This document shows positions 42,478-54,110 of a DNA stretch of 64,000 bases, piece after piece; within the stretch, counting starts at the first letter, position 1; the number at the start of each line of letters is the position of its first letter. The notes below the pieces were generated by a model. The model did not search any database. It was not told the DNA's origin and saw nothing but the letters and a program-made list of their open reading frames with translations. The stretch covers positions 1,920,001-1,984,000 of the forward strand of contig CAWGMA010000001.1 of the NCBI GenBank assembly GCA_963823555.1. Direction: 5' to 3'. The stretch comes from Candidatus Eiseniibacteriota bacterium (GTDB taxonomy: Bacteria > Eisenbacteria > RBG-16-71-46 > CAVPCR01). The translations under genes were made by a program, and so were the position numbers.

Positions 42478-43914
42478 CTATTTCCCCATATCACAAAGAT
42501 CGGTCGCCAGGTCGTCTAACTTGGGCTTCACGGTCAAAGCACCCACAATCAGCTCGGCATCGCCCGGAAGAAGGGTCCGGACATCGAGGAGAAGTTGTCC
42601 CCCTTCGATACGTCCAAGCACGGCCGGATGGCCGCACCTCAGGCCGGTCTCCAGATCCTCCACGCTCCCCGCACCGGGACGCGGGCTCAAGCCGACGGCG
42701 ACCGATGGGATCGCCGCCATCGGCAGGGCGCCGCCACCTACCCGGCTCGTCGTCTCCACCACGCCCACTTCGAGATCGGCCCGAACGGCCGTGATGGCCG
42801 CGGCCAGCGCCGCCGCCTCCGCCCCGAGATCCTCCTTCGAACGCGCCAGCAGCCTCAGAGTCGGAATCTCCACCCACGCGCGCTCGGGCTCCAGATAGGC
42901 GCGGAGCGTCGCCTCGAGGGCTGCGATCGAGAACTTGTCGAGGCGCATGGCGCGTGCCATCGGATCCCGCGCGAGGCGGCGGATGAGCGATGCCGATCCG
43001 ACCATGATGCCCGCCTGCGGCCCTCCGAGCAGCTTATCACCCGAGAACATGACGATGTCGGCCCCGCATGCAAGGCTGTCCCCGACGGTTGGTTCGTGAC
43101 CGATCCGAACTCCCAGGGCAACCAGTGCTCCGCTTCCCAGATCATGGGCGACTTGGAGCCCACGCGACCGGCCGAGAGCGACGAGCTCGGCCAGTCCCGC
43201 CTCGGCAGTGAACCCGTCCATGACGAAGTTCGAGCGATGGACCTTCAAGATGAGCCCGGTGCTGGGTCCAATCGCCTTCGCGTAGTCTTCCAGGTGCGTC
43301 TTGTTGGTCGTTCCAACCTCCCTGAGCCGGGCCCCAGACCGCGCCATGATATCGGGGAGACGGAACGAGCCGCCGATCTCGATGAGCTCTCCGCGGGAAA
43401 CCAGGACCTCGCGACCTGACGCGAGCCCCCCCAGCGTGAGCAACACGGCCGCCGCGCAGTTGTTGACGGCAAGCGCGTCCTCCGCGCCGGTGATCTCGAT
43501 CAGGAGATCGCGGATGGTGTCGAGCCGCGATCCGCGTTCACCCCGCTCGAGGTCGAACTCGAGGGTCGAGTACCGGGCCGCCGCATCGTGCACCGCCTTC
43601 TGCGCCATCTCGGAGAGCACCGACCTGCCGAGATTGGTGTGAATCACGACACCCGCCCCGTTGATGACGGGCCTGAGCCCCCGGCTGGCCAGCATCCGGG
43701 CCCGGGCGGCGGCGCGTGCGGCCAGACGATCGACGTCGAGCACCGCCGCGGCCTGGCGGTCTGTCTCCGATTCGCGGGCCAGATGCTCCCGCGCCCAGGC
43801 CAGCACTTCACGAGCCGCTCGCCGCCTGAGGGCGCGGGGAGCGTCCACGTGAACAAGATCGGGATGGGTTAGCAGGGCCTCGACGGCCGGCAGCTGACGA
43901 CGCCGGTCCGGCAT
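42478..43914 (-). CDS. selA: L-seryl-tRNA(Sec) selenium transferase
   Basis: VINGAGVVIHTNLGR, VNNCAAA, SRGELIEIGGSFR, HRSNF and FSGDKLLGGPQAG (PLP lysine). Confidence 0.95.
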   Translation of the reverse strand: MPDRRRQLPAVEALLTHPDLVHVDAPRALRRRAAREVLAWAREHLARESETDRQAAAVLDVDRLAARAAARARMLASRGLRPVINGAGVVIHTNLGRSVLSEMAQKAVHDAAARYSTLEFDLERGERGSRLDTIRDLLIEITGAEDALAVNNCAAAVLLTLGGLASGREVLVSRGELIEIGGSFRLPDIMARSGARLREVGTTNKTHLEDYAKAIGPSTGLILKVHRSNFVMDGFTAEAGLAELVALGRSRGLQVAHDLGSGALVALGVRIGHEPTVGDSLACGADIVMFSGDKLLGGPQAGIMVGSASLIRRLARDPMARAMRLDKFSIAALEATLRAYLEPERAWVEIPTLRLLARSKEDLGAEAAALAAAITAVRADLEVGVVETTSRVGGGALPMAAIPSVAVGLSPRPGAGSVEDLETGLRCGHPAVLGRIEGGQLLLDVRTLLPGDAELIVGALTVKPKLDDLATDLCDMGK

Positions 43915-44076
43915 GCATGATCTCTTGACCCGCGGTCCGCTCTCCCGGCCGGCAACCACGGGTAGCTGGGCGAGAGTCTGTTCCGCGCAAGCGGCGTCGA
44001 AACTCCCGTGTTTCACGGATACGGATCCGGGAGGGGCGGGGCACTCACACCTTGCACTCGCGGGGCCGGGATACGA

Positions 44077-48798: not shown

Positions 48799-48893
48799 GG
48801 ACTTACCTCCCGAGGCTCGAATATCGACCAACTCTTTCTATGACAAGCAAAAGCGGCTGCAATCTAGCATGGGGCAACGAAAGGGGTCAACTC

Positions 48894-51389
48894 GTGCCAG
48901 GACTGCGCGCAAGAACGAGTCCGGCGGCCCGCGGCCGCCGGCCATCCATCCTCGGCGCCACGAGTGCGGCGCTCTTCCTCCTCGGACTGGCCTGCGCCAA
49001 GCAGCCCGTGACGCCGACCACCAGCACGCTCGAGGCTGAGGCTGCGCGCGCCTATCGCTCGCTGGTGGAATCCCTCGGCATCGACCCCGGTCCCGTGCGC
49101 GGGCGGGTGGTGGTTCTCGATCCTGGACATGGGGGCGGATATCGCGGCGCTTTGGGTCAGAGGGGAACCGCCGAGGCCGACGTCAACCTGGCCGTGGCGC
49201 TCTTCCTGTGGGGACTCCTCGATGACGCCGGTGCCGAGGTCTATCTGACCCGCACGGCCGACCGGGACTTCGTGGGCGGAGAGCTCCATCCCCCCGCGAT
49301 CCAGACCCTGCCGCGCGAGGGAAGCACGGGAAGCATGGTCCCCCACCCGGCCGCGAACACCGCCGCCCCACCCGATTCGCTGCGCTCCGATCTCGCCGCC
49401 CGGATCGCGGCCGCCAATACCTTGAACGCCGATCTCTTCCTCTCGATCCACCACAATGCGGACGCCTCGGGCGATACCACGAGAAACCAGACCCAGACCT
49501 TCTATCGCCTCGGCGATGCCGGCCCCTCGCTCGATGCCGCCCAGGCCATCCACCGCCATCTCATGCGCAATCTGGGCACCGCGCGCGGCCAGGTCCAGCC
49601 CGGGAATTACTACGTGCTGCGCTCCTCGAACGCGACCGCCGCCGTTCTCGGTGAGCCATCCTTCCTCACCAATCCCCTCTTCGAGGAGAAACTCGTCCGC
49701 ATCGATCGCGTCGAGCTCGAGGCCGTCGCCTACTTCCTCGGCATCGTCGACCATTTCGCCCGTGGCGTGGCCCGGGTAGCGGTCCTGGCCCCACGGGACA
49801 CCGTGCTCGATGCGGCGACAACGGTGCTCCGGGCACGCTTCAGCGGAGATCCGATCGATCCCGCCACCGTGGCGCTCACCCTCGACGGCGCGCCGCTCAC
49901 GGTGCGCCCCCATGTCGAGGGTGGGCCAGGTGCGGCGATGGATTTCATCGCCTTCCCGCCGGAGCCCCTCGCCAACGGCCGCCATGTGCTCACCGCACGT
50001 GCCCGCACCTTCGGTGGCAACGGGGCCGCCCCCGCCAGCGCTTCCTTCGTCATGCGCCGCCCCCCGGCCGAGTTGAGCGCCGAACCATGGCCGCTGTGGA
50101 ACGGAACGAACGGGTACGGGCCATTGGGGCTCGTGGTCAGCGTGCGCGACCGATTCGGGCTGGCCGTCGCCGACTCGACGCCTGTCGACCTGACAAGCCC
50201 CGTCCGCGGTCGCCAGTTCACCACAGACGGCCAGGCCTGGTTCCGGCTCGAATCCAGTCCCGCCCCGGAAGCGCGGTGGACCGTCGAATCGGGCCCTGCC
50301 GCGGCAACCTTGCCGGTCATGACGGAAGGCGCACCACCCCATCTGTCGGGTTCGGTCGTCGACCGTTCATCGGGCCGCGGGATATCGGGCGCCGAAATGG
50401 CGATGCGTGATGGCAGAGACTTCCGCGGCCGGACGAATCTTCATGGGGAATATGCGATCTCGCTCCCGACGGATCTTGCGAGCAGCTTGCCAGCCGTTCC
50501 CGGCGAGCTTCGCATCACCGCCCCGGGCTATCTCCCCAGGTCGATGGCTCATGCCCGCGACGCAACGCGGATCGAGCTCGATCCCGTTCTGGGTGGAGTC
50601 CTGCACGGGCGGCGGGTGGCGGTCGATCCGGCCGGAGGTGGCGCCGACCCCGTCGCAACCTCCGCCACCGGGGTGCGCGCCGCGGATACCGCGCTCGACA
50701 TCGCGCTCCGCCTGGCATCGGATCTCGAGCGATCGGGGGCGACGGCCACGCTCCTGCGCGCCGAGGATCGGACCATCCCCGACCTGGCCCGCGTGGAGGC
50801 CGCGGAGCAGGCGGCGGTGGATCGTTACATTCGCATCGGCGCCGATCCGGCCCCGCGCATTCGCCACTACCCGGGCAGCCGGCGCGGAGTGGAGCTGGCA
50901 CGCGCCGCTGCCAGGGAGATCGCCCGGGAGAGCGGACTTGCCCTCGAGGTTCGAGCCGAGGTCACCCCCGTTCTCTTGACGACCAGCATGCCGGCGGTGG
51001 AGATTCTCCTGCCCGCCCCGGCCGGTCCGGCCGGCGAGGATGCCCACCTCGACCCGGATTTCCGCCGGCGCGTGGCGCGCGCGATCCTCCTGGCCGCAGC
51101 CGCCGAGTCCGGTCTCGACCTCGATCGCCAGGCGACCGTGATCCTCAAGTCGGACGCGCCGCACCTGCTCGTGGATGGCATGTTCATCGTCCAGGTAAAT
51201 GACGGGCAGGGCCGGGCACGCGGTATCGATCGCGGCACCGAGCACGAGGTCCTGCCGCTGGCAGAGGGGATGGCGGCTGGACCCCAGGTCACGCGGTTCA
51301 GGGTGGCGGCCCCTCCTCCCGACACCATCACGGTCACGGTGCCCATGAATCCAGCGGCCCCGGCCCCGACCGGTCGAGCCCACGAATAG
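48894..51389 (+). CDS. Lipoprotein N-acetylmuramoyl-L-alanine amidase (Amidase_3) with a second degenerate amidase domain
   Basis: Lipobox LGLAC; DPGHGG, EADVN, SIHHNA and GEPSF motifs; second domain VDPAGGG lacks the His. Start uncertain (48840 or 48894). Confidence 0.8.
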   Translation: MPGLRARTSPAARGRRPSILGATSAALFLLGLACAKQPVTPTTSTLEAEAARAYRSLVESLGIDPGPVRGRVVVLDPGHGGGYRGALGQRGTAEADVNLAVALFLWGLLDDAGAEVYLTRTADRDFVGGELHPPAIQTLPREGSTGSMVPHPAANTAAPPDSLRSDLAARIAAANTLNADLFLSIHHNADASGDTTRNQTQTFYRLGDAGPSLDAAQAIHRHLMRNLGTARGQVQPGNYYVLRSSNATAAVLGEPSFLTNPLFEEKLVRIDRVELEAVAYFLGIVDHFARGVARVAVLAPRDTVLDAATTVLRARFSGDPIDPATVALTLDGAPLTVRPHVEGGPGAAMDFIAFPPEPLANGRHVLTARARTFGGNGAAPASASFVMRRPPAELSAEPWPLWNGTNGYGPLGLVVSVRDRFGLAVADSTPVDLTSPVRGRQFTTDGQAWFRLESSPAPEARWTVESGPAAATLPVMTEGAPPHLSGSVVDRSSGRGISGAEMAMRDGRDFRGRTNLHGEYAISLPTDLASSLPAVPGELRITAPGYLPRSMAHARDATRIELDPVLGGVLHGRRVAVDPAGGGADPVATSATGVRAADTALDIALRLASDLERSGATATLLRAEDRTIPDLARVEAAEQAAVDRYIRIGADPAPRIRHYPGSRRGVELARAAAREIARESGLALEVRAEVTPVLLTTSMPAVEILLPAPAGPAGEDAHLDPDFRRRVARAILLAAAAESGLDLDRQATVILKSDAPHLLVDGMFIVQVNDGQGRARGIDRGTEHEVLPLAEGMAAGPQVTRFRVAAPPPDTITVTVPMNPAAPAPTGRAHE

Positions 51390-51577
51390 CGGCCGGGGAA
51401 TCGCTTCTTGCCCCCAGGAAAGAGCAAGGAACCTCTTCACCTGCTGTGGGTTGTTCTTTTACAATGTTTTACCGGTCTTGCCCCCATTTCGACCGTATCC
51501 TCTACTGGCTGGAACTGGCGACGGCAAGAGCCCACCATCCCCCCACAAAGCCCCTGAGTCGAGAAAGGGTCGTCCCG

Positions 51578-52234
51578 ATGAATCCAGGGCAGTCGACATC
51601 CGGCCGCGCATCGGCGTCCACCAGCCGCCGCCGCGGTGTTTTCCGCGAAGCCGTGGTCATTGTTCTCTGCGGAACGATGCTCGGTCTGGTAGCCAACACC
51701 ATCTCGCCGCGCGGCATCCCGCTCATCGGTGACTTCTCCCGGGGGGCGGCCCTCGCCAATCGCAGCGCGGAGGAGCTGGCAGCGCTCCCAGCCGAGATCG
51801 AGCTGGCAGGCGTCCAGCGCGTGGTCGAAGCCCTCGCAGCGCGATCCGCAGACGAGGATTCAGCTCCGGCCGATGCCGCGAGCGACAACGGGAAGGCGAG
51901 TCCAGCGGAGGCGGGCGGCGACCTCGAGGACGCTCTCCTGTCCCAGGCCGTTCTGATTGATGCCCGCTCTCCCGACATGTATACCTCGGGTCACATCCCG
52001 GGAGCGCTCAACCTGCCGGTGTCCGATTTCGACGCCGCCTATCCCGAGCTCAAGTCTCAGCTCAAGACCGCTTCCCTCATCGTGGTCTACTGCGATGGTG
52101 GCGACTGCGAGCTTTCGCATGATCTGGCCACCATGCTCAAGGACCTGGGACACGGCCCGATCCAGCTCTTTGCCGGCGGATTCGATGCCTGGATGGAAGC
52201 AGGGCACGACATGCGCGCGGGGCAAGAACCATGA
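51578..52234 (+). CDS. Membrane-anchored rhodanese-domain protein
   Basis: N-terminal TM ending NTISPRGIPL; IDARS...GHIPGA; active loop YCDGGDCELS; GGFDAW. Confidence 0.87.
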   Translation: MNPGQSTSGRASASTSRRRGVFREAVVIVLCGTMLGLVANTISPRGIPLIGDFSRGAALANRSAEELAALPAEIELAGVQRVVEALAARSADEDSAPADAASDNGKASPAEAGGDLEDALLSQAVLIDARSPDMYTSGHIPGALNLPVSDFDAAYPELKSQLKTASLIVVYCDGGDCELSHDLATMLKDLGHGPIQLFAGGFDAWMEAGHDMRAGQEP

Positions 52235-52701
52235 TCTCGCGCTCCCTCCTGGCGCGGCTCCTGGGCATCGCACTGGGCGCCATCTTCCTGTATGCGAGCG
52301 TATCGAAGGTCATCGATCCGGCGGCCTTCTCGCGCACCGTCTACCACTATCAGCTCCTGCCGCCGGCAGCCGTGAATCTGGTCGCCATCGTCCTGCCCTG
52401 GATCGAAGCGCTGGTCGGCGCCCTTCTCATCTTCGGGCTCAGGGTGCGGGGCGCATCGCTGCTCGCCGTGATCACGCTCATCTTGTTCCTCGGCGCCATG
52501 AGCTCCGCTCTCGCCCGCGGCCTCAACATCGACTGCGGGTGTTTCAAGGCCGAGGGCACCAAGCTCGGACTCGACCGCATCATCGGCGACCTGGTCCTGC
52601 TTGCAGCCGCGTTCTTTGTCTATCGGGAATCCGCCCGCGTTCCCCAGCCGGGACGGGAGGCTTCCGGGTTCATGCCATCTAGCGTCAAGGAGTCCTCATG
52701 A
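52231..52701 (+). CDS. MauE/DoxX family membrane protein
   Basis: FLYASVSKVIDP, LPWIE and RGLNIDCGCF motifs; ATGA overlaps on both sides. Confidence 0.88.
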   Translation: MISRSLLARLLGIALGAIFLYASVSKVIDPAAFSRTVYHYQLLPPAAVNLVAIVLPWIEALVGALLIFGLRVRGASLLAVITLILFLGAMSSALARGLNIDCGCFKAEGTKLGLDRIIGDLVLLAAAFFVYRESARVPQPGREASGFMPSSVKESS

Positions 52702-54059
52702 TCCGTCGTGTCGCGTTTCTCCTCATTCTCTTGTTCGCCGCGGCGGCGAGCCTCATGCTCGCTGGCCGCCCGGGCCCAGCGGCCGGGGAGAACGAGATCG
52801 TCGTCCTCGCCACGGCATCGAACCGCGGCGAGGTCGACCCCTGTGGGTGAAAGTCGGCCCGCAAGGGAGGGCTGGCCCGGAGGGCTGCCCTGATCGACTC
52901 GCTCCGCCGCCTCAATCCGAACGTTCTCGTTGTCGATGCCGGCGGCATGATCAACCCGAACAAGGCGAAGAGCCCGCGCTATGACCAGTTCGTGTTCAAG
53001 GCCATGAACCGGATGGGGTACAACGCGGCGACCGTCGGCCAGCTCGAGCTGGATCGCGGGACCGAATACGTCCGGGAGCTCGCACCGCAGCTCGACTGCC
53101 CGGTCGTGGTCTCCAATGCCAAGGCCACGGCCGGTGAGACCCCATGGCGGGAAACAGCGATCGTCACGGTTGGCGGTCGCAAGTTCGGGATCCTCGGCCT
53201 CGTGAGCCAGGACTTCGGTTCCGGCAAGGAGGCGCTCGAGGATGCCGGGTGGACCATCGAGGATCCGATGGCCGCCGTGGCGCGACTGCTACCCGAGCTC
53301 GAGAAGCAGTCCGATGTCACGATTGCCCTCGCTCATCTCCAGGCCGCCGACCTCGATCGCCTGGTGCGCGAGGGAAAGGGCATCGATCTGGTGATCGCCG
53401 GCCTCAACCCGCATCCGATGAATACCCAGCCCGACGATGCGGTGACGGCCATCCTGCGTCCCGGACAACGAGGCGAATACATCGGTGTCGCTCGTATCAC
53501 ACCGGGTGCCGGCGGCGGACCGGTCACGGTCGATGGGCTCGAAGCGGTCATGCTCGAGATGAACAAGTACCCCGACGATCCGGAACTGGCCGCCGAGCTC
53601 GAGGCCTTGAAGAAAGAGGTCGACGCGGAGACCCGCAAGGCGCAGATCGAGCGCGAGCTCAAGGCGCAGGATGGGCTCATCCTCGGTCAGGATCGCTATC
53701 TCGGCAACGAGACCTGTGCCCGTTGCCACTCAGGCGAGATCGACTGGTGGAACTCGGACCCTCATGCCAAGGCCTTTGCCACCCTCGAGAAGGAGGGCAA
53801 GCAGTCCGATTCAGCCTGTCTCCGCTGCCACGTGACCGGGTACGAGCAGCCCGGCGGATTCGGTGGCATCGGCACCACCGCCAACATGAAGAGCGTCCAG
53901 TGCGAGTCCTGCCACGGGATGGGGACTCTGCACGACTGGACGGGGAAGTCGGCGTCGGTGCCGGGGGAGGCGACATGTCGCGCTTGCCATGTCGCGGAAT
54001 GGAGCCCTGATTTCGAGTATGGGGCCTACTTGAAGCGCCTCGGACACGGCACCAAGTAG
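52698..54059 (+). CDS. Exported UshA-like selenoprotein (Sec at codon 51) fused to a tetraheme cytochrome c (c554-like) domain
   Basis: ATG 52698 after AAGGAG is in frame with the 52947 ORF. It reads signal peptide...NRGEVDPCG-TGA(52848-52850)-KSARKGGLARRA...VDAG. CxxCH motifs start at 53715, 53817, 53901 and 53976. Confidence 0.85.
52869..52890 (+). promoter_or_regulatory. Candidate bacterial SECIS element
   Basis: GGGC-U-GGCCC-GGA-GGGCU-GCCC hairpin with a bulged U; the G-led loop follows a 28-nt spacer 3' of the in-frame UGA. Confidence 0.6.
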
Positions 54060-54067
54060 TCGAGCTC

Positions 54068-54110
54068 GAGGGCTGGGGAGAGCAGCGCCGCGCTGCCCTC
54101 CCCCGCCCTC
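54068..54110. terminator. GC-rich hairpin between convergent genes
   Basis: GAGGGC-GGGGAG-GCAGCG / CGCTGC-CTCCCC-GCCCTC inverted repeat; no U-tract. Confidence 0.5.

Follow-up and report, generated by a model that had tools for sequence, protein, structure and literature searches.

We analysed a 64,000-nucleotide stretch (here, the window) of contig CAWGMA010000001.1 from a Candidatus Eiseniibacteriota bacterium (assembly GCA_963823555.1, positions 1,920,001 to 1,984,000), in which three consecutive genes encode a membrane-anchored rhodanese, a MauE protein, and an UshA-like selenoprotein with four haems (Table 1). The original prediction, made from the letters alone, described these genes as chained by ATGA overlaps, and we find both overlaps at 52231-52234 and 52698-52701. 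The redox motifs that it read in the products are also there: YCDGGDC (residues 171 to 177) in the rhodanese, CGC (102 to 104) in MauE, and P-C-G-U (48 to 51) plus four CxxCH in the selenoprotein. Each component belongs to a named family; what is likely new is their combination as an electron relay in the envelope. Our tentative proposal is that the three products form a periplasmic oxidative relay that ends at quinone.

Table 1. Features of the rhodanese-MauE-selenoprotein operon, in window coordinates
Feature	Position	Strand	Product or detail	Basis
Rhodanese-domain protein gene (gene 1)	51578-52234	+	218 aa	PF00581 (E 7.9e-17), hydropathy, alignments
MauE gene (gene 2)	52231-52701	+	156 aa	PF07291 (E 1.1e-27), invariant columns, AlphaFold2 model
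UshA-like selenoprotein gene (gene 3)	52698-54059	+	453 aa with TGA as selenocysteine	NF041198, PF13435, AlphaFold2 model
In-frame TGA, almost certainly a selenocysteine codon	52848-52850	+	U51	Homologue alignment, selenocysteine machinery genes
Selenocysteine insertion sequence (SECIS) hairpin	52868-52891	+	Core GCCC-GGA-GGGC at 52875-52885	Conservation and fold
AT-rich intergenic patch, probable promoter region	51425-51480	+		Base composition
Strong G+C stem-loop between convergent genes	54068-54110	+	No U-tract	Folding energy

Comparison with homologues indicates that the in-frame TGA of gene 3 is almost certainly read as selenocysteine (Sec). A full-length match with an in-frame TGA was present in 39 of 41 genomes searched; one of the remaining two has the gene only in contig pieces, and the other, a 70% complete genome, gave no match. 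The UGA position aligns with Cys in homologues (69 UGA and 35 Cys copies), and a 4-bp SECIS stem capped by a G-led loop is preserved in 62 of the 69 UGA copies versus 1 of the 35 Cys copies; these are distinct copies from all loci fetched, counted after one spurious motif match was dropped. Compensatory changes keep the two synonymous positions of the stem paired in 65 of 69 copies, compared with a mean of 54 and a maximum of 60 after shuffling, a comparison that ignores kinship. The host genome encodes selA, selB, selC (tRNA-Sec), and selD; selD (G000:C4:475969-476883) itself carries an in-frame TGA.

The family that best matches the gene 3 product is NF041198, the UshA-like (seleno)proteins. 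The protein has the PCGU motif within an exported UshA-like domain, and the family model is matched by its N domain as well as by its C-terminal part, but its score of 253.9 bits falls below the curated cut-off of 275, making it a near-threshold relative; the cut-off is passed by 5 of 7 Sec-containing relatives (276 to 306 bits) and by 0 of 3 Cys homologues. In the accessible parts of three reports (PMC2398784, PMC9312934, PMC13188914), the UshA-like (seleno)protein (COG0737 UshA-like, CxU) is listed without function or gene context: it was one of twenty major selenoprotein families in a 2008 ocean survey, and its function is still blank in a 2026 review table.

The gene 3 product comprises a signal peptide, a degenerate 5'-nucleotidase domain (residues 31 to 315) that contains C49-G-U51, a long helix, and a four-haem domain (about 336 to 450). 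Its AlphaFold2 model has a mean predicted local distance difference test score (pLDDT) of 81.6, with only 50 to 72 in the haem domain. Residues 31 to 315 adopt the 5'-nucleotidase fold (Z 32.8, root mean square deviation [rmsd] 2.3 over 275 residues to 2z1a; Z 28.8 to SoxB). That the Sec-bearing domain is a degenerate nucleotidase fold of a catalogued family goes beyond the original prediction. The protein shares with the 5'-nucleotidase/SoxB dimetal hydrolases both this fold and a two-domain layout with a long linker helix, but a four-haem domain replaces their C-terminal substrate domain and its metal ligands are degenerate. The dimetal-ligand motifs of these hydrolases are DxH, GD, GNH, H, and GHxH; the equivalent positions hold S41, R43, G83, Q115, L116, L236, and P238, leaving only H213, and no dimetal ligand is conserved across 91 four-haem sequences. 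On these grounds we rejected membership among the active hydrolases. The N-domain positions that are invariant in the 91 sequences are C49, G50, C/U51, G57, G58, R61, and G82. These positions, with no dimetal ligand conserved, indicate that the protein is not a working nucleotidase and that Cys-Gly-Sec is likely its active site.

The C-terminal domain has four CxxCH motifs, matches PF13435, and resembles cytochrome c554 (1bvb): haems 1 to 3 align, and the haem 4 region gives no significant alignment. Its haem ligands are four proximal His residues plus H356 and H412 (91/91) and H450 (78/91). With seven His for four haems, one haem must be without a distal His. In cytochrome c554, haem 2 is five-coordinate. 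That haem is also described as the active site of c554 in the available part of a preprint (bioRxiv 10.1101/641308). The haems of the gene 3 product probably offer a second electron exit. Haem-less paralogues of the Cys type occur at two other places (L003/L075 and L005/L076), and haem-less and haem-bearing copies stand in tandem in several relatives (five loci), hinting at heterodimers.

By its conserved residues and predicted topology, the gene 2 product matches the DsbB-like, quinone-linked thiol oxidases. Its AlphaFold2 model (pLDDT 88.6) has four transmembrane helices, with the CGC loop joining the third helix to the fourth; charge bias over 76 MauE sequences places this loop outside. K26, E59, and C102-G-C104 are invariant in all 76 aligned sequences and F105 is found in 69, so that every DsbB-like feature of MauE is present: CXC-F in the loop that links helices three and four, the conserved Lys and Glu, and four transmembrane helices. 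MauE was recognised only in 2026 as a widespread disulfide-forming protein: according to the available part of that preprint (bioRxiv 10.64898/2026.03.05.709764), two MauE proteins substitute for DsbB in Escherichia coli, with both Cys required, and docking predicts the conserved Lys, Glu, and Phe to lie near quinone. The partners proposed there, DsbA and MauD, are of the thioredoxin fold, in contrast to the two-Cys rhodanese coupled to MauE here, and the words rhodanese, seleno, UshA, and cytochrome do not occur in its main text.

The host genome (92.5% complete) has no match to DsbB, VKOR, or a DsbA-like protein; it has one MauE, and other thioredoxin-fold proteins are present. In a fold search with the MauE model (m4dfa39ef8b8e, window 52231-52698), the best match was human NACHO/TMEM35A (Z 14.4, rmsd 2.3, 119 residues), followed by one at Z 10.6; DsbB and VKOR lay outside the top 50, in a comparison to which a helical bundle lends little discrimination. 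In-frame stops flagged within MauE matches were considered as Sec and rejected, since CGC is intact in 72 of 72 complete copies. The class also contains a long MauE type; of the 16 examined, 12 have a CxxC tail and 9 a neighbouring thioredoxin with WCxxC.

The original prediction had instead likened the MauE protein to DoxX in its complex with the rhodanese SseA of Mycobacterium tuberculosis, a comparison that the DsbB-like features displace (bioRxiv 10.64898/2026.03.05.709764). The DoxX-SodA-SseA complex (Nambi et al. 2015, as cited in PMC7907618), there tied to mycothiol homeostasis, does pair a DoxX-clan membrane protein with a sulfurtransferase; however, DoxX is not a CGC-type MauE, and the complex, as described there, includes neither a selenoprotein nor a haem. 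Because MauE fits the DsbB-like oxidases, electrons would more likely exit to quinone than to the haems.

The rhodanese has one N-terminal transmembrane helix (21 to 39), a low-complexity linker, and a rhodanese domain (122 to 207) with C172-x4-C177. A weak positive-inside bias (2.1 vs 1.6 K/R) suggests that the domain is periplasmic. All three Cys/Sec motifs are thus predicted to face the periplasm, as the original prediction supposed, and all are conserved. C172 lies at the start of the active loop, as expected of a rhodanese catalytic Cys. Across the class loci, both Cys are present in 51 of 73 and neither in 22 of 73; the invariance of C172 and C177 in our alignment A7 is by selection and carries no evidential weight. 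Thiosulfate sulfurtransferases bear basic loop residues for their anionic donor, unlike the acidic loops found here (D/E in 72/90, K/R in 1/90). As the two Cys are kept or lost together and K/R is so rare, the predicted loop looks like a dithiol rather than that of a thiosulfate sulfurtransferase, which does not support the sulfur transfer that the original prediction associated with rhodaneses.

Rhodanese and MauE form a tight, conserved unit. Our class survey covered 201 genomes, 89 of which have a MauE match; 75, the host included, have the short type, and the 74 other loci were fetched. A rhodanese directly adjoins the short MauE in 73 of these 74. The two genes overlap by a 4-nt stop/start in 47 of 114 pairs, and 3 of 150 representative proteins are natural rhodanese-MauE fusions; no such fusion appeared among longer forms in a 5.8-billion-sequence set, which is weak evidence by that method's own terms. 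Among the best 80 of 132 confirmed loci in a cross-phylum rhodanese scan, MauE lies directly downstream in 41 (Eisenbacteria, Acidobacteriota, Ignavibacteria, and Planctomycetota). In other lineages the pair has sulfur-related neighbours, namely the exporter TauE, a fusion of YeeE with rhodanese, and NrfD together with a c7-type cytochrome. We found no description of the pair or the trio in the open-access literature that we searched.

The selenoprotein gene flanks this pair in 8 of the 74 class loci, in three arrangements. Family f1 (1 locus) has the window's order, rhod>mauE>ush; genus g50 (4 loci) has HU>ush>rhod>mauE(>CBS); and in genus g34 (3 loci), as well as at one metagenome locus, ush is divergent from the pair. 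All trio loci have the UGA, the SECIS, and the cytochrome domain, and two further genomes are compatible with the trio but cut by contig ends. In FastTree trees of the selenoprotein and of MauE plus rhodanese, placed by inspection, the three trio groups belong to separate clades, each grouping with the lineage it comes from. The rough chance probability is 0.0003 to 0.011 for two further adjacencies and 0.02 to 0.15 for one, assuming odds of 0.2 to 0.8% per context and 12 to 20 contexts; on this rough estimate, the recurrence of the trio exceeds chance. Because the three genes co-occur in three separate lineages, the trio is likely to act as an electron relay in the cell envelope.

The expectation of a conserved three-gene neighbourhood therefore holds in part: the trio recurs in three clades, but the conserved unit is the rhodanese-MauE pair, of which the selenoprotein is a non-obligate partner. 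An earlier view of the trio as confined to one family (1 of 40 relatives) was overturned by the 201-genome survey. Because each gene groups with its own lineage, the data do not support the trio having moved as a single block. A single-protein metagenome scan returned no relatives; an alignment-based scan did find them. The selenoprotein gene usually follows lptD (18 of 20 loci), and in 9 of 20 it is itself followed by CBS and/or CGL. In the host and its genus-mate, a haem-less Sec paralogue occupies this ancestral lptD-HU-ush-CBS slot, and the window copy is a relocated one; in the host, this UGA/SECIS UshA-like paralogue lies within G000:C1:410000-426000, where the slot continues to CGL. The LptD-like proteins encoded upstream of ush keep two Cys (TTC in 20/20, HCW in 19/20). 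This holds also for families in which no oxidant for them turned up among DsbB, VKOR, and full-length MauE.

In the relay that we propose, electrons would pass from Cys49/Sec51 of the selenoprotein to Cys172/Cys177 of the rhodanese, a step suggested by recurrent adjacency and a predicted shared compartment. From there, gene coupling and partner complementarity point to Cys102/Cys104 of MauE as the next acceptor, and MauE would finally reduce quinone, as the preprint on MauE indicates (bioRxiv 10.64898/2026.03.05.709764). Candidate substrates of the selenoprotein are protein thiols, or sulfide/persulfide. Since the partner of MauE is thioredoxin-like in some cases and a two-Cys rhodanese in others, we infer that the rhodanese is probably the DsbA-like shuttle that a MauE with a single Cys pair requires. 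A functional tie between the selenoprotein and the pair, as client or as upstream catalyst, seems similarly probable. DsbL-DsbI is encoded beside its client, an arylsulfate sulfotransferase. MauD-MauE is likewise encoded with its methylamine dehydrogenase client (bioRxiv 10.64898/2026.03.05.709764, in the part available). These dedicated cassettes resemble the operon in that membrane oxidase and shuttle are encoded beside the protein served; what sets the operon apart is a proposed shuttle outside the thioredoxin fold and a redox selenoenzyme as neighbour. If the proposal is true, a rhodanese fold replaces DsbA as the shuttle of MauE across several phyla, and an orphan UshA-like selenoprotein gains a defined redox partner and a direction of electron flow.

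Several observations weigh against such a relay. In 66 of 74 loci (6 of them with <1 kb of downstream sequence), the selenoprotein gene does not flank the pair. MauE is near 0 and rhodanese near 1 of 80 metagenome ush loci, many of which are on short contigs, and in 15 of 41 genomes the selenoprotein is retained although full-length MauE, VKOR, and DsbB gave no match. Genera g34 and g50 belong to one family (f10), so their trios could reflect one event plus a rearrangement. With four haems, the selenoprotein has an electron route of its own and may have little need of MauE. As for the rhodanese, no MauE was nearby in 39 of the best 80 loci, those inspected being mostly HIT-rhodanese fusions, and 22 of 73 class rhodaneses have lost both Cys while still adjoining MauE. 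These Cys-less proteins fall into a single clade and nearly always have a DUF1573 gene upstream. In favour of the relay, CGC is retained in MauE at all 22 loci, and 13 of the 22 genomes, versus 0 of 53 others, have a second, long MauE, although this pattern is confounded by the single clade. The fusions, which join a HIT domain, a transmembrane segment, and a two-Cys rhodanese without MauE nearby, come from Kapaibacterium, Bacteroidota, and Ignavibacteria.

The alternative that survives best, though we consider it unlikely, is co-regulation without direct exchange: a general disulfide cassette and an independent envelope redox selenoenzyme would be needed under the same conditions and share one transcription unit. 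Each module is much commoner alone, one of the three arrangements is divergent and shares only a promoter region, and the haems give the selenoprotein a separate electron path. Against simple co-regulation stand the translational coupling of MauE and selenoprotein through ATGA in the window and the prediction of all three redox motifs on the same side of the membrane.

Slightly less probable is a pathway for sulfur species resembling MccSep, TsdA, or SoxAX, in which Cys49/Sec51 would close over the one haem left without a distal His, polysulfide would be reduced or oxidised, the rhodanese would carry sulfane sulfur, and MauE would pass electrons to quinone. Such a haem is implied by the ratio of seven His to four haems across the 91 sequences, the N domain has a fold in common with SoxB, and sulfur genes are near, both at the ush loci (CBS, CGL) and beside the pair in some lineages (TauE, the YeeE-rhodanese fusion, NrfD). 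MccSep/ExtKL, a periplasmic multihaem c-type protein with Sec and Cys, acts on polysulfide through Sec and a Cys-ligated haem 2 without bis-His ligation, according to the accessible part of PMC13510729. Yet that protein carries five haems as well as an Ig-like domain, and its Sec is C-terminal, whereas the gene 3 product has four haems and its Cys-Gly-Sec lies N-terminally within a nucleotidase fold. The MccSep/ExtKL family, NF040886, is not matched at the locus, and we rejected membership in it. The acidic rhodanese loop also argues against sulfur transfer, and MauE acts as an oxidase, opposite in direction to polysulfide reduction. The Sec-haem contact would involve a haem domain modelled with low confidence and without haems, and Sec paralogues without haems exist. 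Of the readings considered, this one is closest to the original prediction, whose pathway from sulfur transfer to haem is a weaker rival of the oxidative relay; we found no evidence for the link to metal(loid) chemistry that it also raised.

We regard it as improbable that the selenoprotein-cytochrome is itself a periplasmic thiol oxidase built on a dead nucleotidase fold. Its Cys-Gly-Sec would take electrons from client dithiols, for example the two conserved Cys of the LptD encoded immediately upstream in most relatives, and hand them on, either to the four haems of the same protein or, in genomes that have one, to a rhodanese-MauE-quinone branch. If this is so, disulfides would also arise by a selenium/haem route beyond DsbB, VKOR, and MauE, and that route would act on its own in 15 of the 41 genomes sampled, in which the selenoprotein is present without those matches. 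Equally improbable is an accident of gene order, in which a mobile rhodanese-MauE cassette met a duplicated selenoprotein paralogue by chance: the pair is found in about 14 different contexts within the class, the window copy is relocated while the ancestral slot keeps its haem-less paralogue, and counting g34 and g50 as one event leaves the chance estimate at just 0.02 to 0.15, but f10 has two different insertion points around ush, a third lies in another order, the clades are separate, and the genes are coupled by overlaps.

The AT-rich patch upstream of the operon, noticed in the original prediction, has 45% G+C against a window value of 67%, and a content this low is seen in 0.09% of 56-nt segments; the sigma70-like TTCACC-18-TACAAT within it (51436-51465) is not above chance (1 found vs 0.5 expected). 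The closing hairpin is similarly borne out (-37.2 kcal/mol, z -4.4; unequalled in 200 shuffles), but with no U-tract at 54068-54110 we do not call it an intrinsic terminator. Directly upstream of the operon is a gene for an 849-aa protein with two Amidase_3 stretches (48840-51389, +), which is conserved before the rhodanese in the family, and selA lies about 7.5 kb upstream (42478-44016, -). Elsewhere, the host genome has 26 frames with at least 3 CxxCH, one of them with 36, and large clusters of multihaem cytochromes, accompanied by genes resembling those for cytochrome c maturation, occur at G000:C4:284000-300000 and in G000:C2 near 496000.

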